Origin: a virus
Virus record (IMG/VR): IMGVR_UViG_3300025000_000077
Location: 1-64,000 of that record
DNA: 64,000 nt
Direction: 5' to 3' (one strand)
The position numbers and the translations under genes were made by a program. Positions 1 through 12,299 of this stretch are shown here, piece by piece. The notes beneath the pieces were generated by a model that saw nothing but the letters and a program-made list of their open reading frames with translations, was not told the DNA's origin and did not search any database. The stretch's first letter is position 1. Every line of letters starts with the position of its first letter.

Positions 1-61
1 TGATAGTTTATAATATCCATAAGGGGAAGGAAGGGAAGTTACCAAAGAAATTTAGAAAAGG

Positions 62-535
62 ATGGTCTTAACAATGGCAATGATCACAGACAAAGGAATC
101 GAAGAATTAAATAAACTATCAGAAGAAGATGGTTCAGGAATTCTCTTTTGTCCTGAGGACCTTCAAGAATCATACCCCTATGCATACGCACTTGCTAAAT
201 GCGTGGGCTGGACTGAAGAGCAAATAGCCGATGCACTTCGATTTATTCAAAATAAATGTGATATCGAAGGAGCCAGAGCCGGAACGACATTAAGACAAAT
301 CATAACGATGCTAAGTGAACAAACTGATAATATGGTTCAAGTGCTTGACAAATATAAGATAAAGTATGATGATATAAACCCTAAGAAAAAGTCATTCTTT
401 GATATTGTAGATACCATTGCTAAAAGTAAAATGGGAGCAAGGGAGATGTTTTATCTGTTTAATTGTACGGGTGTAGGGTTGGAGTTTATTGATATTGTGT
501 ATAGTTACAGGCATGAGATTTACAGGGAAGAATGA
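62..535 (+). CDS. Stand-alone TP901-type tape-measure core-domain-like protein
   Basis: AGTTLRQIITMLSEQTDNMVQVLDKYKIKYDDINPK...SKMGAREMFYLF aligns by eye with AGTTLRGILQELVAPTKASMDVFTKYGLTLEDLNPK...SGMSDAEMFTVF in the tape measure protein at 27853-30264. Confidence 0.7.
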   Translation: MVLTMAMITDKGIEELNKLSEEDGSGILFCPEDLQESYPYAYALAKCVGWTEEQIADALRFIQNKCDIEGARAGTTLRQIITMLSEQTDNMVQVLDKYKIKYDDINPKKKSFFDIVDTIAKSKMGAREMFYLFNCTGVGLEFIDIVYSYRHEIYREE

Positions 536-543
536 TGGAGTGA

Positions 544-637
544 TTGAACTACCCCGCCATAAATGACGGGGATTCTTAGTTCATTCCCCTCTCTTTTGAG
601 AGTGAGTCCCTAAGCTCTGCCCGTAGTCCCTACGGTG
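544..637 (-). ncRNA. TnpB-type right-end (re/omega) RNA scaffold; putative guide would continue into 543-524
   Basis: Minus strand ACCGTAGGGACTACGG...CTCTCAAAAGAGAG...TGAACTAAGAATCCCCGTCATTTATGGCGGGGTAGTTCAA; stems 621-635, 589-602, 545-551/577-583 and 552-571; layout typical of IS605/IS1341 right ends. Confidence 0.6.
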
Positions 638-671
638 AAATTAGATTCTGTAAAACATTAGGTGTATTAAA

Positions 672-1370
672 ATGATTGAAGTTAAAATCGGTGACTGCTT
701 TGAAATCTTGCAGGAATATCCAGACAATTGTTTTGATTTAGTCCTTACAGATCCTCCATATGGGATCGGGGAAACTGGATCTCATAGCAAGTCAAGAAAA
801 AGGAAGTCTGGGTACACACAAAACAAGGAAAAAAACTGGCATTCTTCTTCAAAAGCTGCACCAGTAATTGACATGGATTATACATGGGATGAAAAATTAT
901 CACAAGAACATATTAATGAGATATTAAGAGTTTCAAAAAATCAGATAATTTTTGGTGGTAATTATTATGCTGATTGGTTGCCAGCTTCCCCCTGTTGGAT
1001 TGTTTGGGATAAGAAAAATGGAAAGTCTGACTATGCTGATTGTGAACTTGCTTGGACTTCATTTAAAACATCAACACGTCTTTTTTCTTACAGATGGAAC
1101 GGTATGCTGCAGGAGAACATGAAGTTTAAGGAGAAGAGGGTTTATCCAGCACAAAAACCGTTAGCTCTTTTTAAATGGTGTTTAGAGACTTTCGCTAAAC
1201 CTGGTCAGAAGATATTAGATCCTTGTTGTGGATCAGGAACGGCTATAAGAGTATGCAGAGAACTAGGATTAGATGTTATTGGGATAGATAAGAATCCAGA
1301 TTCTTTACAAATCATTAAAGAAAGAGCTTTATTAAACATGCCTGAACTTTCTATTTATGAGGATAAGTAA
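672..1370 (+). CDS. DNA methyltransferase (N6-A/N4-C, beta class)
   Basis: LTDPPYG catalytic motif IV, followed by YPAQKP and ILDPCCGSGT SAM-binding motif I. Confidence 0.92.
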   Translation: MIEVKIGDCFEILQEYPDNCFDLVLTDPPYGIGETGSHSKSRKRKSGYTQNKEKNWHSSSKAAPVIDMDYTWDEKLSQEHINEILRVSKNQIIFGGNYYADWLPASPCWIVWDKKNGKSDYADCELAWTSFKTSTRLFSYRWNGMLQENMKFKEKRVYPAQKPLALFKWCLETFAKPGQKILDPCCGSGTAIRVCRELGLDVIGIDKNPDSLQIIKERALLNMPELSIYEDK

Positions 1371-1464
1371 AAGCGATAGATTACTTAACTGCGAGGCTCC
1401 GCTCTCATCCCCTCCCTAAAGGAAGGGGTCTTCTCGCTGCGCCTCCGCGCTCCCCGAGATAAAA

Positions 1465-1680
1465 ATGAACCAAATTGACAAACAAAAACTGGAATCACTC
1501 AGAAAAGATAAAGACTTCGAAGCTAAATTAAAATTTCTATGCAATGCTTATGACGACGAAAACGGACGGTGGCCTGAAAGCAGTCTCGAGGGTGGTGCAT
1601 TGTTCAGTTATTATCAAGGAGTCGATGACTGGACTGAATACTGGAAAGAATTAGAAACCAAACTCGGTAGAAATGTATAG
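1465..1680 (+). CDS. Hypothetical protein
   Basis: ORF in operon context; its ancestral RBS appears displaced by the IS-like insertion. Confidence 0.6.
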   Translation: MNQIDKQKLESLRKDKDFEAKLKFLCNAYDDENGRWPESSLEGGALFSYYQGVDDWTEYWKELETKLGRNV

Positions 1681-1735
1681 TTATTTATAAAAAAACATAG
1701 AACGGGAAAACATGGATACTAATTGAGGATAAATC

Positions 1736-2176
1736 ATGAGGGATATTAAATTCAGAGGTAAAACTTATTCCGGTGAATGGGTCATTGGAAATTATTCTGT
1801 AAGTTCATTCCATTATGATCTCGATAACCCTGGGAGAAAAATACACTCTATAATGACAGAGAATGCCCTACATAATATAGATCCTGAAACACTAGGGCAA
1901 TATATAGAACAGCACTCCAAAGACGGAGATGATATTTATGAAGGGGATGTCGTAGAATCAAAAGATGTTATTATCTTTTGCCTAAATGAGTACATAACCG
2001 AATGTAAAGCATGTGTATACGGGCACGGTGTAGTTGAATGGAATTCCCCGAATTTCAGAATAAAAAGACTGAACGGGTCTGAGTTTTATGATCCAATGGG
2101 TGATCGTTTTGAATGGAGTGAATTAAGAGTAATTGGGAATATGTGGGACAATCCTGAACTTCTCAAGGGGGAATAA
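1736..2176 (+). CDS. YopX family phage protein
   Basis: MRDIKFRGK N-terminus, DPETLGQY, DIYEGDVV, VIGNMWDNPELL C-terminus. Confidence 0.9.
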   Translation: MRDIKFRGKTYSGEWVIGNYSVSSFHYDLDNPGRKIHSIMTENALHNIDPETLGQYIEQHSKDGDDIYEGDVVESKDVIIFCLNEYITECKACVYGHGVVEWNSPNFRIKRLNGSEFYDPMGDRFEWSELRVIGNMWDNPELLKGE

Positions 2177-2211
2177 ACAATTAATACTTTCATACTCGAA
2201 TCAACAGACAG

Positions 2212-2499
2212 ATGGAAAACCCGCTCCACCGAGGAAATATCGAGAAGGGTGGGCAAATGTTAGACATTGAAAAACTCACTGACATTGAACTGAAACTTAT
2301 ATTCAACGGCCTGAACGAACTACCCCTTTCACTCGATAAACGGTATTATGATGCACAATTACAATTAACGGATATTACGAGAGAAGGCATCAGGAATCGG
2401 GGCATTGAAAAACATGATATACAAATAGATTTTACTTACAATATGGATGAAGTGAATAGAGGAAAAGTACAGGGTGCTAATGGGAAATGGATGAAATGA
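2212..2499 (+). CDS. Hypothetical protein
   Basis: ORF track; start may be the internal ATG at 2257. Confidence 0.45.
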   Translation: MENPLHRGNIEKGGQMLDIEKLTDIELKLIFNGLNELPLSLDKRYYDAQLQLTDITREGIRNRGIEKHDIQIDFTYNMDEVNRGKVQGANGKWMK

Positions 2500-2736
2500 A
2501 GGTATTTATAGATGAATAATCCCATTATTGAAAATAAGAGAGGTGTTTAAAAATGCCATGCCCTTATAAAAAACAATGTCCTCACGTGGACCCAGATGGC
2601 CGTATATGCAATGATGACGCGGGTACATGGGATTACTGCGGGTCTTTTAAAAGAAATGCAAACGGAGAGTTCAAGTAAATTCAATTACTTATTTACTTTT
2701 TTGCAGTTTGTTTTTTTGATACTACATATATCCTCC

Positions 2737-2840
2737 TTCCTAAGGAAACAAATAACGGACTATACATATCCTCCTTAAGAAGAAATGAATATACTTAAAT
2801 ACTTCCTAAGCATGTTATGTATATCGTTTCCTAAGGAGGA
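2737..2840. repeat. ORB-like TTCCTAAGGA repeats upstream of cdc6
   Basis: TTCCTAAGGAA 2737-2747, TCCTTAAGAA 2772-2781, TTCCTAAGCA 2803-2812, TTCCTAAGGA 2828-2837 (overlapping the RBS). Confidence 0.65.
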
Positions 2841-2847
2841 ATGAGCT

Positions 2848-4077
2848 ATAACTCCGAAAATATCACTATCTGATATACTAGCAACTGATAACCGCTTATT
2901 CGTGAATAAGAACGTAGTAAAGCCGAATTATACGCTTTCTAGCATTGACGATATCCTGCACAGGGATGATGAAATAAAAACTTATTACGAATATCTTAAG
3001 GATATATTTATCCACGTTTCCCCTAGCAACCTGTTCATATACGGCAAACCGGGATTAGGTAAAACCGTACTAACTAAACTGATCTTCGATGAGGTCCGGA
3101 GGGAAGCCGAGAACCGGGGAATAGACCTCTGTATCATCAATGTAAACTGTGATGAAATCCGCACAGAACATGCCATATTACAGAAACTAGTCCAGGAAAT
3201 GCCAACAACCGAGCCGAGAAGAGTTCTTGGTAACTCAAGAGATAATCACACTAAATATCTAAAATATCTGATCGACAAGTACCCAGGCATACTAATCTTT
3301 GTTTTTGATGAACTGGATAAATCATCAAGTCCTGAAATGATTAACGGAATTATCAGAACTCAATCTGCTGCATCTGGCCAGTTTCCCACTGTAATAGGCA
3401 TCACAAACGACTTAGAATTGAAGGACAGGTTTCCATCTCAACTCAAGAGCGTTTTATGTGAGAACGGCCTGATAATCAACCCATACGACGCATTACAGCT
3501 ATTCGATATCATCAGAGCAAGAGCAAATCTCGCATTTAAAAAGGATGTAATAGCCGATTCCGAGGTATCCTTATGTTCTGCATATGCCGCCCAGGACCAC
3601 GGAGACGCACGGAGAGCTATTGATCTCTTGCGGGTTTCTGGAGAGGTAGCTGAATCCAAGAACCACGCTCACATTGAAGAAGAGGACGTCAGAGAAGCAC
3701 ATCACAAACTAGAGGTAGATAAAGTAATCGAAGTCGTAAAGACGCTTCCCAGCCAGTCTAAGATTGCCCTGCTGTCCTGCATATACGTTGACAACTCCCC
3801 AAAAGAGAACGATACTAACAATATATACGCAGTGTATAGAAGCATATGCGATAGACTCGGATACGATTCATTAACTCAGAGGAGAGTAACTGACCTTCTT
3901 TCTGAACTCGATCAACTAGGAATTATAAAAGGGTCAAACTTTTTTAAAGGCAGGCAGGGGAGAAAGAAAATAATAACCAAGATCACGTCAAAAGAACAGG
4001 CACTCGATGTAATTTACTGCGAATTCGGAGAATTGGAAGGAAAGCAGGGAGAATTCATAAGAGGTTTAAATGGGTGA
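2848..4077 (+). CDS. cdc6: Cdc6/Orc1 replication initiator (probable ATA start at 2848; ORF track starts at GTG 2902)
   Basis: Walker A IYGKPGLGKT, Walker B FVFDELD, GDARRAIDLLR, C-terminal winged helix LTQRRVTDLLSELDQLGII. The in-frame upstream extension SLSDILATDNRLFVNK resembles Cdc6 N-termini. Confidence 0.95.
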   Translation: MTPKISLSDILATDNRLFVNKNVVKPNYTLSSIDDILHRDDEIKTYYEYLKDIFIHVSPSNLFIYGKPGLGKTVLTKLIFDEVRREAENRGIDLCIINVNCDEIRTEHAILQKLVQEMPTTEPRRVLGNSRDNHTKYLKYLIDKYPGILIFVFDELDKSSSPEMINGIIRTQSAASGQFPTVIGITNDLELKDRFPSQLKSVLCENGLIINPYDALQLFDIIRARANLAFKKDVIADSEVSLCSAYAAQDHGDARRAIDLLRVSGEVAESKNHAHIEEEDVREAHHKLEVDKVIEVVKTLPSQSKIALLSCIYVDNSPKENDTNNIYAVYRSICDRLGYDSLTQRRVTDLLSELDQLGIIKGSNFFKGRQGRKKIITKITSKEQALDVIYCEFGELEGKQGEFIRGLNG

Positions 4078-4090
4078 GTATGTATCCGGC

Positions 4091-4270
4091 TTCCTAAGGA
4101 GAACAAAATGAGAAGAACGTATATTGATTCTTTAATGTTCTATACATATTATAGTTAATGTTCTCGTGTTCTAGTTATGTAATTAATAGTATAAATAGTT
4201 AATTAAAGAACACTGTATAAAAGTATATCATAAATAATAACTAATCATAAAATAGAGTTCCTTAGGAAAC
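4091..4270. other. Putative replication origin: inverted ORB-like boxes flanking an AT-rich unwinding element
   Basis: TTCCTAAGGA 4091-4100 and inverted TCCTTAGGAA 4259-4268 bracket a very AT-rich non-coding stretch immediately downstream of cdc6. Confidence 0.6.
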
Positions 4271-8056: not shown

Positions 8057-9265
8057 TTAAACCTCCCGGATAAACGCGCTCTTGATCCATTCTAAGCGCG
8101 CCAGAGCTTCTTCTCTCGAAGAACAGGAGAATACTATTTCATACTCTCCCGCACTCGTAGCAGGAGCAACACCAGAATAATCTTTCACATTTCTAGACAG
8201 TTTGTTTCCCTCCACGAAAATAGTATATTTATCAGGGATTAAATTTGCAATCGCAGTGCCCGATGTCGCAACCGTAGAATTCGGTTTTTGAGTGTTTGTA
8301 ATTGTATTATTCTTTACAGTGGCAGTGTACCCTTTTCCCGCAGATGTAGTCAGATATCTCCCGAACAGGACCCCGTAACCCTTGCAGGAATCAATTATAT
8401 TATTCTCGATGTTCACACGGTCCCACCCATCACAAACGATGCCACCGAGGCCAGGTATCCCATTCTCGACAGGCATGGTCCCGCAGTTGGATATCACATT
8501 ATCATGAATGTTGAGATCAGAGGCCGCTTTTATATTCGAGGAAGTGTGGCATGCAGCCCAGATTCCCGGACCATATGTGCCTTCAATGTGATTATTCCAG
8601 ATCTCAATTCCAGAGCTCAATTCATCAGCTTTTGAATTTTCAACCTGGATGCCCGGGGAATACGCCTCTGATGTGCCATATATGAAATTATCATGAAAAG
8701 AGACGTTAGAGGAGCCTTTCGACCTGAGCGCAGAATTAACCCTCGTATATGTAACATTCCCGGCTGCCTCGACATTCACACACCTTTCAACAAAAAGACC
8801 ATCATGCCCGCACTCTTTGATTATGTTCCCCGAGTACAGGACATTCTCACAGTCCACTATCCTGGCTATATCTCCCTGAGACTCGCCTGCAGTCACATTC
8901 CGGATGGTTATGTTTTTCCCTCCCCGGATGCCCACAAGGTTATGAAAACCCTTACCATGTGCTACTTTTTGAGATCTCCGATTCCCCCTGAATGTGATAT
9001 TTTCAATTAGGATATCTGAGATGTAATTCTCGACCTGCCCAAAGATAGGAACCATTGAGGGAAAAAGAGTCTCTGAAACACCTGCTGTCAGGGTAATTAT
9101 TGCCCCGGGGTCAGAGGTAATTGTAGTTCCTGAATTCAATTGATACGGGCGCGCGGCTATGTAGAAGCCTTTTAAAAGTTTGATTTTATCGTACCTGAAG
9201 CCATCGCCCACTTTGTCGAAACTCGACTGTTGAAGAGTCCCGCTGGATAACGTAAGAGTTGCCAT
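8057..9265 (-). CDS. Right-handed beta-helix, disaggregatase-related glycan lyase/hydrolase (lysin candidate)
   Basis: Parallel beta-helix repeats; NIHDNVISNCG...GGIVCDGW...IENNIID...GYTATVKNNTITNTQK resembles the Methanosarcina disaggregatase-associated region. Confidence 0.7.
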   Translation of the reverse strand: MATLTLSSGTLQQSSFDKVGDGFRYDKIKLLKGFYIAARPYQLNSGTTITSDPGAIITLTAGVSETLFPSMVPIFGQVENYISDILIENITFRGNRRSQKVAHGKGFHNLVGIRGGKNITIRNVTAGESQGDIARIVDCENVLYSGNIIKECGHDGLFVERCVNVEAAGNVTYTRVNSALRSKGSSNVSFHDNFIYGTSEAYSPGIQVENSKADELSSGIEIWNNHIEGTYGPGIWAACHTSSNIKAASDLNIHDNVISNCGTMPVENGIPGLGGIVCDGWDRVNIENNIIDSCKGYGVLFGRYLTTSAGKGYTATVKNNTITNTQKPNSTVATSGTAIANLIPDKYTIFVEGNKLSRNVKDYSGVAPATSAGEYEIVFSCSSREEALARLEWIKSAFIREV

Positions 9266-9553: not shown

Positions 9554-9949
9554 TCACTCCTTAACAACCATTGCAGCCTTTTCAAGTGTCATCCGGTGAG
9601 TCTTTGCGATCTCAGATATTATATCACTCAGAGGCACGCCGCCCGCCTTCAACGCTGCAATGCGATCCAGAACAAACTTCGGAGTTGTATAATGATCTAC
9701 GCGATCCGAACGATGCCCCCATACATCACCCTGGATAAGCTGGATTCTCTGGTCCTCACAGAATACTCTAATGTCCTGCGAGATTTTGGCAATATACGAT
9801 CTGGGAAGTTGAATCACTTCAATCTTTGGGCACGTCCTTACAACTGAAAATACATCAGCAACGGACGGGCGGAACGAAAAATGCACTGCTCTCTCGGTAG
9901 GCTTTACATATGGAATTTCAGATCTTGATGAAATTACGCGAATGTCCAT
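9554..9949 (-). CDS. DUF1699 family protein (Methanosarcina-type)
   Basis: IRVISSRSEI...VHFSFRPS...CPKIEVIQLPRSY...IQLIQGDVWGHR. Confidence 0.85.
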   Translation of the reverse strand: MDIRVISSRSEIPYVKPTERAVHFSFRPSVADVFSVVRTCPKIEVIQLPRSYIAKISQDIRVFCEDQRIQLIQGDVWGHRSDRVDHYTTPKFVLDRIAALKAGGVPLSDIISEIAKTHRMTLEKAAMVVKE

Positions 9950-10089: not shown

Positions 10090-10761
10090 TTATTTTGCAT
10101 CTTTAGTTATATATGGCGTATAGTAGCACAAACAATTCGGATGAGAAAGGGGTAAAGCATCTTGGATCAGAAAAACCCGTCTATCCAACCCTAAACAAAC
10201 ATCACATGTTCCGCCTTTATGCATAGCGTGCCTCTGCACATACTGTAAATTTCCTGATTCCCATGTGCGAATCTGACTCTCATATTGCATATTCCTAGTT
10301 TCCGTGAAAGCCGCGACCCTAGCCCGTTTATTGACTGCAAACTCTTCCAGTTTTCTTAACTCGGTATCGATCTGATCGGAAGTCCAACCTTCATTTTTTG
10401 CGCTCTCAAAAATATGCAGAACACTTTCACGAGTATCACTTTTTAGAGATTTTAACCACGGCTTGAATACTTTCTTTTCTGTAGTTCCTACAGTTTCAAC
10501 CACATAAGAACCGCCCTTCTCTTTTAATATTCTTTCATAGACGGCAGCCGATACTATACTTTTTTTAGTCATTTCAGTGGCGTTCATCTTGACAGGGGCA
10601 AGCCCAACAGTTGACCTCACGGCGTTAAGCTCTCTTAGAGCTTCATATGAAGCCGCCATTTGAGTTTTAAGAGCTGCTTTCGAGAGGGAGGCAATGTAGG
10701 CTAGGTAGAGTATTAAGAGTGCTTCATCGAGGTTAGATTCATTTTCTTCGTCTTCGGTCAC
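10090..10761 (-). CDS. Head morphogenesis protein (Mu gpF/SPP1 gp7-like)
   Basis: RARVAAFTETR...TCDVCLGLD...HPNCLC C-terminal motif; in the portal operon. Confidence 0.8.
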   Translation of the reverse strand: MTEDEENESNLDEALLILYLAYIASLSKAALKTQMAASYEALRELNAVRSTVGLAPVKMNATEMTKKSIVSAAVYERILKEKGGSYVVETVGTTEKKVFKPWLKSLKSDTRESVLHIFESAKNEGWTSDQIDTELRKLEEFAVNKRARVAAFTETRNMQYESQIRTWESGNLQYVQRHAMHKGGTCDVCLGLDRRVFLIQDALPLSHPNCLCYYTPYITKDAK

Positions 10762-12299
10762 TGGATCGCCTCCTCGAAAGTTCCAAGTGTGATCTCATCT
10801 AACTGCCCCCTAGCCCGCATATACTTCTCGTTTTCGGGGTCGCTGTCAATGCCTATGAATACTCTATTAAGCAGTTTACAGGCTTCTAGTGTAGTTCCTG
10901 AACCTGCAAATGGATCTAAGATAACGTCACCTTCACGGCTTCCCATTGTTATGAGGTATGACATTAATTTAAGGGGTTTTACCGTGGGGTGTTTGTTTTC
11001 GATGTATTTGTTTTTCTCAGATTTGGAGGGTTTGGGGGTTATTAAGAAGGGGAACGTTTTCTGTTGTTCTTCAGGGAGTTCGGTTATCTTTTTAGACCAC
11101 CATGCATCTAAGGAGAAATAGCGGGAAAAGTCGCCTTGATCGTTACAACCTGAATAAACATCTCCTTTTCCAAATGTTGCAGTTGGTGAATCGTGAATAC
11201 CCATCCCACTTTTATTTTTTCGTATGCTCGCGGTTGATTTTGTTATAATCCCCCGATCAAGTACATTATCCGAAACTAATAAATTCGCTGGAAATCTGCC
11301 TTCTGGGGATAATTCATACCCGCCTTTGAACGCGGGGGAGTTATCCCCGTAATCATTCTTTGAAGCTCCGAAACCCGTACCAGCTTTAGGAATTGTTTCA
11401 TCAGATTTATAGGGTATCCTACACTCATCAAGCCACAAACAACCATGCCCGTTATCTAAAACCTGATCTATATAGGATTTCGTTGATAATGGTTTCATCA
11501 CACAGATTATAACCTCAACTGCGGGTTTAAGAGAAGCCGTATAAGCTCCTGAGAATTCGCGGGCTTTGTCTGTGGCGGGGGCTGTATAATTAATATCAGT
11601 TTTTGAAAAAGTTCCAACCCCTGACAGATATCCGCCTCCATCAGCATAAGCATTTGTTTTATGTCTGGTGCTTAATATTTCCCGTTCTGCTTCTTCCCTT
11701 CTACGAATAGCGCGCTCAATTAATTCTATAAACCTCGGATTATTCAGTTTCAAAACATCTTTTAAAACTACCCACTGCTCCATAGTTGGAATATTAGCAC
11801 CGTTTTCCCAATTCCAAACACACCCCGTTAAACCACCCGTTTTGCTTGGGAAATACGTTGCTATATCTTTTTGAGAAAGTCCTAATAATTCCCTTGAAGT
11901 TTTAAGATATTGACATAATTCTTTTGATAATTCAGAATATTTCGCGTTAGCTGTACCTCTCTTGTCAATCAATTTATCAATAGCGGCAGACTTAGGAAAT
12001 CCACTAGCAAAACTCCAAAAAATACTAGAAAAATTAACATTAAACCCCGCATCCTCAAGCCGAATAATCATCCTACTAAGAACATCCTGTCTAGGGGCAC
12101 ACATAAAAAACCCAAATGCCCCCGGCTTCAATACCCTGCAACACTCTCTTAATGCCTCTTCTGAGGGTAACGCTTTATCCCAAGAAAGCCCCATGAATGA
12201 ATAGCCATAAGGAGGGTCCGTTACAATGCAGTCTATTGATTCATCAGGCAACTCTTTCAGGACGTCGGCGCAGTCGCCTATGATAACTTCGTTTTTCAC
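10758..12299 (-). CDS. DNA methyltransferase (beta class) with inserted XRE-type HTH domain
   Basis: VTDPPYG, HPTVKP, LDPFAGSGT; internal LKTSRELLGLSQKDIA...VWNWENGANIPT HTH. Confidence 0.9.
   Translation of the reverse strand: MKNEVIIGDCADVLKELPDESIDCIVTDPPYGYSFMGLSWDKALPSEEALRECCRVLKPGAFGFFMCAPRQDVLSRMIIRLEDAGFNVNFSSIFWSFASGFPKSAAIDKLIDKRGTANAKYSELSKELCQYLKTSRELLGLSQKDIATYFPSKTGGLTGCVWNWENGANIPTMEQWVVLKDVLKLNNPRFIELIERAIRRREEAEREILSTRHKTNAYADGGGYLSGVGTFSKTDINYTAPATDKAREFSGAYTASLKPAVEVIICVMKPLSTKSYIDQVLDNGHGCLWLDECRIPYKSDETIPKAGTGFGASKNDYGDNSPAFKGGYELSPEGRFPANLLVSDNVLDRGIITKSTASIRKNKSGMGIHDSPTATFGKGDVYSGCNDQGDFSRYFSLDAWWSKKITELPEEQQKTFPFLITPKPSKSEKNKYIENKHPTVKPLKLMSYLITMGSREGDVILDPFAGSGTTLEACKLLNRVFIGIDSDPENEKYMRARGQLDEITLGTFEEAIQ

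Follow-up and report, generated by a model that had tools for sequence, protein, structure and literature searches.

The virus record IMGVR_UViG_3300025000_000077 of IMG/VR has 75 kb, and its first 64 kb, the window analysed here, contains a DNA methyltransferase gene with a hairpin on each side. The question raised by this locus is whether the two hairpins are the ends of a transposon that carries the methylase, the remains of unrelated insertion sequences (IS), or structures that belong to the virus itself. A first-pass annotation of this DNA had proposed IS200/IS605 ends and a TnpB-type guide-RNA scaffold wrapped around the methylase. No transposons are smaller than the IS200/IS605 elements, from which TnpB, the ancestor of Cas12, derives. 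The reading favoured here, to which we give a probability of about 85%, is that positions 544-1458 (915 bases, read on the minus strand) represent a non-autonomous transposon of the IS200/IS605 family, which has lost its own genes and holds a DNA methyltransferase as cargo. Comparison with related loci makes the identity of the element, and its origin as a tnpB-deletion derivative, highly probable; for the capacity of this copy to be mobilised the chances are judged even.

Ends of the element and their homology with IS200/IS605 elements

Both hairpins are present where the annotation had placed them. Read on the minus strand, each has a TTTA loop closed by an uninterrupted stem of 8 bp, whose sixth pair is a T.G wobble; in the plus-strand reading this pair turns into a C.A mismatch, giving the form of 5 bp, mismatch and 2 bp first described, and therefore the hairpin structure belongs to the minus strand. 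The left and right hairpins differ at four positions, which make up two compensatory pairs. Exactly two hairpins of this form are found in the window, and the rest of the 75-kb record has no other; 0.28 would be expected by chance, and two or more appear in 4 of 100 shuffles. Deletion of 544-1458 reproduces the excision product previously predicted, GATGGAGTGA/ATAAAAATG, without target duplication. No terminal inverted repeats of the element were found, and its own 75-kb record shows no further copy of either end. The record contains no match to PF01797 (tnpA), so the element is non-autonomous, and none to PF07282 (tnpB), in agreement with the absence of both genes noted before.

The right-end pattern, consisting of GAAT, CCCC-N4-TTTA-N4-GGGG, 2-10 nt and TCAA (GAATCCCC-N4-TTTA-N4-GGGG-N2-10-TCAA), matches at least 119 viral contigs, with less than one chance match by our estimate. 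Among the matches listed, 69 right ends have enough upstream sequence: 51 show a TnpB-sized open reading frame (ORF) directly upstream, ending within 260 nt, and the other 18, without an adjoining ORF of this size, include a broken tnpB, an IS3-type insertion and unknowns, with no further methylase cargo. The left-end pattern was found in 12 viral and 25 metagenome loci; related loci are designated here by L numbers. Both ends align to the ends of tnpB elements with 92-94% identity over 96-116 nt. Window 650-543 shows 94.4% identity to the right end downstream of tnpB in L204, 92.7% to that of L226 copy 2 (positions 587-2248) and 91% to that of L226 copy 1 (positions 41-484). Window 1464-1369, a span that includes six flanking bases (TTTTAT) outside the element, shows 92.7% identity to the left end of L226 copy 2; for the left ends of L226 copy 1 and L233 the identity is 83%. 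A check set in advance, whether the ends match any IS200/IS605 element, thus gave matches at both sides (94% and 93% for the right ends of L204 and L226, 93% for the left end of L226). The match at the right end starts inside the last tnpB codons of L204 and L226, and the codons N-L-I-S-P-stop are kept at 647-630; therefore, tnpB once stood there.

The window left end closely resembles the left ends of L209, L210, L222, L225, L233 and L241, and the hairpin sequences are equal, letter for letter, to those of elements still bearing tnpA or tnpB. TnpB is confirmed by Pfam in L113, L145, L204 and L226; L113 and L145, which share the TAGTTCAA ending, encode a 372-aa protein with three TnpB Pfam domains. 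The TnpA domain Y1_Tnp is present in L209, L210 (tnpA at 10408-10854 on the minus strand), L221 and L241, and L249 contains a transposase phrog. The proposal that the cassette depends on TnpA in trans stands to the extent that Y1 TnpA-encoding elements with near-identical left ends exist (L209, L210, L222 and L241); these partners were found among the viral and metagenome contigs searched.

Two other explanations have to be weighed against these data. That the hairpins are terminators or regulatory structures of the virus itself, placed around the methylase, would agree with two G+C-rich hairpins in the intergenic spacers on both sides of the gene and with the folding of region 536-671, which is better than that of shuffles (z -3.1 to -4.8). 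However, region 1371-1464 folds with no unusual stability (z about -0.4 to -1.1), only the strand antisense to the gene gives an unbroken stem, as the T.G wobble shows, and the homology to IS ends located beside tnpB or tnpA in many unrelated contigs refutes this explanation, to which we leave almost no chance. According to the second, two unrelated IS remnants would flank a long-resident viral methylase gene. The nearest left ends were first met in the tnpA-type loci L209 and L210 and the nearest right end in the tnpB-type locus L204, so that the pair looked at first like a chimera. However, L226 copy 2, a tnpB element, and L226 copy 1, a 444-nt derivative, each hold both end types; the window ends share one strand and follow each other in the proper order, and TTAT flanks the left one on the outside; homology ends inside the methylase stop codon (1369-1370) on one side and begins 21 nt from its start codon on the other; and L225 shows a methylase in the same slot and the same orientation. 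Two independent remnants are thus very unlikely, and a single tnpB-derived element remains the preferred reading.

Pairing between guides and cleavage sites

IS608 (ISHp608) of Helicobacter pylori is the mechanistic model of IS200/IS605 peel-and-paste transposition. It shows the guide/site pairs GAAT/TCAA at the right end and AAAG/TTAC at the left end, and guide positions 1, 2 and 4 pair with site positions 2, 1 and 4 (work of Barabas, Ton-Hoang and Chandler). The pairs GAAT/TCAA and AAGA/TTAT, on which the annotation had relied, are present at the right and left ends of the window element and follow this rule: for AAGA it predicts TTnT, in agreement with the TTAT present, and for GAAT it predicts TCnA, in agreement with TCAA. 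Covariation among relatives lends support to the rule. In right ends of loci fetched by their left end, a set which is unbiased for that reason, GAAT goes with TCAA in six distinct ends and GAAG with TCAC in five, and no mixed end is present. Guide position 4 covaries with site position 4 (T/A in six, G/C in five), which is direct covariation for the guide-to-site pairing. At the left, TTAT is directly outside about 30 of 33 related ends, at different sites and usually as TTTAT; among the exceptions, the TTTT of L113 and L232 fits TTnT, whereas TTAC in L221/L239 (one locus) and GTAT in L248 do not.

The element resembles IS608 in several respects: subterminal CCCC...GGGG hairpins on one strand with a 4-nt guide directly 5' of each, an identical right pair, insertion 3' of a tetranucleotide without duplication, and a pairing rule that fits both ends. 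It differs from IS608 in its left pair, AAGA/TTAT instead of AAAG/TTAC, in the distance of the left site from the hairpin foot (30 nt, bridged by an extra small hairpin, while the right site is 8 nt from its foot), and in having a methylase and neither tnpA nor tnpB.

By eye, the left hairpin seems to be enclosed by a long-range stem (1447-1437 with 1396-1390, GGAGGC/GCCTC). In the same region L221, L235 and L239 show AGAGGGG/CCCCTCT, compensatory with respect to the window, and such a stem would bring TTAT near the guide.

Guide-RNA scaffold of the right end

The annotation had also described the right end as a scaffold of omegaRNA type (right-end element RNA, reRNA). An alignment of 11 right ends (A1) shows four helices with compensatory changes at 19 of 27 pairs. 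Paired cells amount to 94.6%, compared with 74.4% in shuffles, and the covariation score is 0.558, compared with 0.185 in shuffles; none of 500 shuffles reaches it, and slid controls give at most 0.151. As an example, helix 3 is CTCTC/GAGAG in the window and L226 copy 2 and CTGAC/GTCAG in L204, L226 copy 1 and L237. All four helices form in the window copy. The short right ends of the tnpA-only relatives L210, L222 and L241 lack helices 1-3, which are therefore linked to TnpB rather than to TnpA. The covariation supports the view that the right end, besides being a site for TnpA, would act as a scaffold for a guide RNA. That the orphan guide RNA is functional appears somewhat doubtful; no RNA sequencing run containing this stretch was found.

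Like tnpB-only (IS1341-type) elements with omegaRNA, such as ISDra2 and ISGst (PMC10055086), the element shows a structured right end that extends from the tnpB stop to the transposon boundary; the scaffold ends at this boundary, and therefore the guide would be flanking DNA. The transposon-associated motif (TAM) of TnpB would equal the TnpA target, also as in those elements (PMC10055086). The closest relatives of this kind are L226 copy 2, L204, L237, L113 and L145. Unlike the tnpB-only elements, here tnpB is deleted, a slot for antisense cargo separates the left end from tnpB in the family, and the scaffold has no Rfam family.

Organization of the element

The features of the element are collected in Table 1. 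The cargo segment has 718 bp for an ORF of 699 bp, so the methylase fills nearly all the space between the ends. The left end reaches into the gene, since the last two bases of its CTTTT tail are part of the methylase stop codon. At the other side, the 21-nt junction shows no blastn similarity to the promoter block common to L225, L226 copy 2 and L233. The antisense position of the methylase with respect to the element, another point of the annotation, is borne out by the coordinates.

Table 1. Coordinates of the features of element 544-1458 and of its flanks in the window.
Feature	Position	Strand	Remarks
TTAT target and left cleavage site	1459..1462	-	outside the element; with the preceding T it gives TTTAT, the likely TnpB TAM
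Left end, 90 nt	1369..1458	-	leader with small GCGC/GCGC hairpin, guide AAGA, TnpA hairpin, conserved tail ending CTTTT
Guide AAGA	1432-1429	-	directly 5' of left hairpin
Left TnpA hairpin, CCCCTTCCTTTAGGGAGGGG	1428-1409	-	stem with T.G wobble
Cargo: 232-aa beta-class N6_N4 DNA methyltransferase	672..1370	+	antisense to the element; same orientation as neighbouring viral genes
Junction, 21 nt	651..671	+	between methylase start codon and kept tnpB tail; AGGTG ribosome-binding motif at 660-664
tnpB remnant, last five codons and stop (N L I S P stop)	630..647	-	stop inside helix 1; tnpB of L204 and of L226 copy 2 finishes with the same codons
Right end with putative omegaRNA/reRNA-type scaffold, 107 nt	544..650	-	homology to L204 and L226 right ends; covariation
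Helix 1	635-621	-	right-end scaffold
Helix 2	614-610 with 579-575	-	right-end scaffold
Helix 3	606-598 with 593-586	-	right-end scaffold
Guide GAAT	575-572	-	directly 5' of right hairpin
Right TnpA hairpin (helix 4), CCCCGTCATTTATGGCGGGG	571-552	-	stem with T.G wobble
Right cleavage site TCAA	547-544	-	ends 8 nt past right hairpin
Flank that would act as omegaRNA guide if transcription left the right end	524..543	-	from the TnpB/omegaRNA model (PMC10055086)

Family organization and cargo slot

In the complete element L226 copy 2, TTAT is followed by the left end, then by two small antisense ORFs rich in Cys, a TATA-rich block, tnpB and the right end; its tnpB (L226:1049-2161) encodes 370 aa, in which the RuvC motifs D, E and D can be seen. 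L225 contains the left end, an antisense N6_N4 methylase of 257 aa, the promoter block and the N terminus of tnpB, and L233 the left end, an antisense ORF of 122 aa and the start of the promoter block. Promoter block and tnpB start are 95% identical between L225 and L226 copy 2 over 162 nt. These layouts imply a cargo slot between two conserved blocks, with the cargo antisense to tnpB. As read from these loci, the family layout is left end, antisense cargo, bidirectional promoter block, tnpB and omegaRNA right end. Both the left-end type and the right-end type of the window co-occur in the full-length and in the tnpB-less copy of L226. The latter, with 444 nt, is a second tnpB-less derivative: it has a Cys-rich ORF, a 56-nt remnant of the C terminus of an L225-type methylase and a slightly longer tnpB tail. 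The two copies are about 100 nt apart on one metagenome contig of 2.7 kb, each with its own TTAT in front.

The cargo varies among elements. The window methylase (DPPY) and the L225 methylase (SPPY) share 24% identity. The tnpA-type elements show a sense ORF between the left end and tnpA; in L222, L221/L239 and L235 the slot ORF matches phrog_757, 'DNA methyltransferase', with E from 1e-66 to 3e-71. This ORF shows PPC and ENP motifs by eye, and its Atlas neighbours are viral S-adenosylmethionine (SAM) methyltransferases; neither Pfam nor NCBIfam nor the PDB sequences give a match to it, and its label as a methylase is therefore provisional. L222 is a complete unit of 1.27 kb: TTAT, left end, methylase, tnpA and right end. 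The slots of L210, L241, L249 and L209 contain unknown proteins of 185-419 aa or several small ORFs. Overall, a DNA methylase of one of three kinds is present in five or six of about 13 distinct elements, all on viral or metagenomic contigs.

L221 and L235 were considered as one methylase-tnpA element at different sites, and this was dropped: their left flanks differ, but the similarity on the right continues far beyond tnpA, and a right end was not found.

Other loci with these ends show particular features. In the CTAAGAAGGCGAG subgroup, a 65-aa antisense ORF is right after the left end, in the cargo-slot position: L113:1768-1962 (+), L145:10294-10488 (+), and also L207, L211, L218, L232 and L234. 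It has no family match, and its copies are too similar to judge selection. L209:2583-3802 combines the left end with three small ORFs in sense orientation and with a Y1 tnpA, and shows no recognisable right end up to 600 nt after tnpA; this end may be lost or farther off. L231 has a left end of AAGA type and, behind it, tnpB (L231:1115-2257) with a fragment of a family 2 glycosyltransferase downstream on the same strand (L231:636-1076, -); the search for a right end found none, and the fragment may lie inside or outside the element. In L216 a 450-aa RRXRR and HNH protein (IscB-like; L216:6538-7887, +) is antisense beside an AAGA-guide hairpin flanked by TTAT (L216:7913-7932), and the same end family may also serve IscB elements. 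L204 is the 5-kb contig JAQVBN010000046.1 of a metagenome-assembled genome labelled Candidatus Paceibacterota, a candidate phyla radiation (CPR) bacterium, with tnpB and a right end 94% identical to this family; it may be a mis-binned viral or archaeal contig.

The methylase of the window

The product of 672-1370 matches Pfam PF01555 (N6_N4) with E 8e-19 and 68.8 bits (cut-off 26.7) and phrog_67 with E 8e-43, and its PDB relatives are DpnA, CcrM and RsrI. Motif IV (DPPY) is near the N terminus and motif I (ILDPCCGSGT) near the C terminus, which is the order of the beta class. The protein is full-length against homologues of 77-71% identity (P0002-P0004), and an identical protein (P0001) is encoded on six contigs. 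The gene is intact. An AGGTG motif is located 7 nt upstream of the ATG at 672. The predicted gene must be expressed from the viral operon.

Hundreds of viral homologues show 40-59% identity. None of 80 IMG/VR loci with such homologues (up to 59% identity) has these ends near the methylase gene, and in GenBank phages the matches are confined to the methylase coding region and never include the ends. The window methylase is like the orphan phage N6_N4 (PF01555, beta class) methyltransferases in fold family and size, and the role usually inferred for these is protection from host restriction. It is unlike them in lying inside transposon ends, which are missing near those genes in the IMG/VR loci.

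Virus record and insertion site

The source of the record is, as predicted from its genes, an archaeal tailed virus, whose DNA is present in groundwater metagenomes. The virus encodes an Orc1/Cdc6 protein with archaeal Atlas neighbours, and a tail-protein fragment and a YopX-like protein are among its gene products. The ORFs of at least 60 aa listed in positions 1-4100 are all on the plus strand. The element is inserted 3' of TTAT in the spacer between viral genes of 157 and 71 aa. The 157-aa ORF upstream of the insertion (62-535, +) contains the core domain of phage minor tail/tape-measure proteins (PF10145, E 5e-11) and is distant from the tail genes. IMG/VR shows no relatives of this ORF, and only relatives of 33-36% identity for the YopX-like ORF. 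A disaggregatase-related beta-helix protein and a DUF1699 protein are encoded at window positions 8060-9265 (-) and 9557-9949 (-). These two families are presumably found mainly in Methanosarcina, and both proteins point to a Methanosarcina-like host.

Proposed origin and mobility

The origin proposed is a tnpB-type element with an antisense cargo slot, in which a deletion would have taken the promoter block and tnpB except for its last five codons and stop, leaving the 90-nt left end, the 718-bp cargo segment and the 107-nt right end. The deletion looks recent, because the ends are 92-94% identical to those of full-length elements. The mechanism is drawn from the literature on IS608 and TnpB (PMC10055086). 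A Y1 HUH TnpA acting in trans would bind the two T.G-wobble hairpins of the minus strand, AAGA and GAAT would position cleavage at TTAT and TCAA by IS608-type pairing, and TnpA would excise the strand as a circle and paste it 3' of another TTAT without duplication. The expected donor joint would be TTAT/TCACTCC and the circle junction TCAA/CTCGGGG (TAGTTCAA/CTCGGGGAG). This donor joint, TTAT followed by the right flank, would be TAM plus target for an RNA reading out of the right end, and the flank 524-543 would adjoin TTAT solely in the empty allele left by excision. Given transcription of the right end, a TnpB in trans could cut empty alleles flanked by TTTAT, and recombination would restore the element. 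The methylase would be read with the viral genes and would protect viral DNA from host restriction.

Of the autonomous partners, other cargo genes and empty alleles whose search the first-pass annotation had suggested, tnpA and tnpB partners and other cargo were found, but no empty allele among IMG/VR relatives or assembled contigs. In assembled Logan contigs of four sequencing runs, the filled site is present in two groundwater samples and no contig bridges 544-1458; in one other run the neighbouring genes appear as short, diverged pieces and the inside of the element as conserved methylase fragments alone.

Several points weigh against the reading as a methylase-bearing transposon. The cassette is at one site only, with no second copy, empty site or circle junction found; the assembled contigs show the filled site only, and IMG/VR holds no close relatives of the virus to compare for an empty site. 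The cleavage site is 10 nt from the hairpin foot in tnpA-type partners, compared with 8 nt here, and a single TnpA for both is an assumption. For the scaffold, Rfam gave no relevant match with E up to 10, and the retained part has about 92-107 nt, whereas full-length relatives may use further sequence inside tnpB, beyond its 5' limit. The promoter block of the family is gone and the neighbouring genes run the opposite way, so there is no known source of guide-RNA transcription.

An inactive relic would account for part of these observations: a fossil fixed in the virus, meeting no matching TnpA or TnpB, with a silent scaffold and a methylase which is now an ordinary gene of the viral operon. 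The single copy, the absence of tnpA and tnpB from the record, the lost promoter block and the presence of the filled site only, in two groundwater samples, agree with it. Nevertheless, both hairpins, the guides and the cleavage sites are intact, the hairpins are the same letter for letter as in elements with tnpA or tnpB, the ends keep 92-94% identity to full-length elements, and the independent tnpB-less derivative of L226 (41-484) retains the same modules. We place the relic below even odds, as a possibility to be taken seriously beside the preferred reading of a cargo-bearing IS200/IS605 derivative.

Relation to known elements and significance

Palindrome-associated transposable elements (PATEs) are gene-less IS200/IS605 derivatives, described as without protein-coding genes (PMC3119063; PMC10055086). 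Like PATEs, the window element is non-autonomous, keeps both ends and would need TnpA in trans, and PATEs often show an omegaRNA that needs TnpB in trans (PMC3119063; PMC10055086). Unlike them, it holds an intact gene for a 232-aa enzyme between its ends. Cargo in IS200/IS605 elements was previously unknown and was found rarely in the census of 2023 (Altae-Tran et al., PMC10691335), whose main text does not mention methyltransferases or methylases. In contrast with the cargo elements of that census, those described here show antisense cargo in a defined slot, loss of tnpB with cargo and omegaRNA kept, and an archaeal virus setting, which are undescribed there (PMC10691335). A search of an incomplete body of literature gave no report of methylases as cargo, of a slot for antisense cargo or of elements of this kind in archaeal viruses.

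IS200/IS605 elements were long treated as carrying their own genes alone, and the window element is a clean cargo-bearing derivative within a small family that has a defined cargo slot. A wider reading, rather unlikely in our judgement, is that an IS200/IS605 lineage in viruses of methanogenic archaea is a dedicated shuttle for DNA methyltransferases and small genes, and an RNA-guided gene drive for an anti-restriction gene. In it, one left-end type would serve tnpA forms and tnpB/omegaRNA forms, and methylases of at least three unrelated kinds would have entered the slot beside the left end; the cargo would be moved by TnpA, and in co-infecting genomes TnpB with the omegaRNA would cut the alleles that have no cargo. 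The window element would then be the drive at its minimum: two ends, a guide RNA and a cargo. The system is compact: its ends measure 90 and 107 nt, TnpA has 150 aa and TnpB 370 aa, and the sequences of all four are available. If these elements move, they would give archaeal viruses a route to exchange anti-restriction genes, and TnpB homing would become testable as a drive for useful cargo, beyond the transposon itself.

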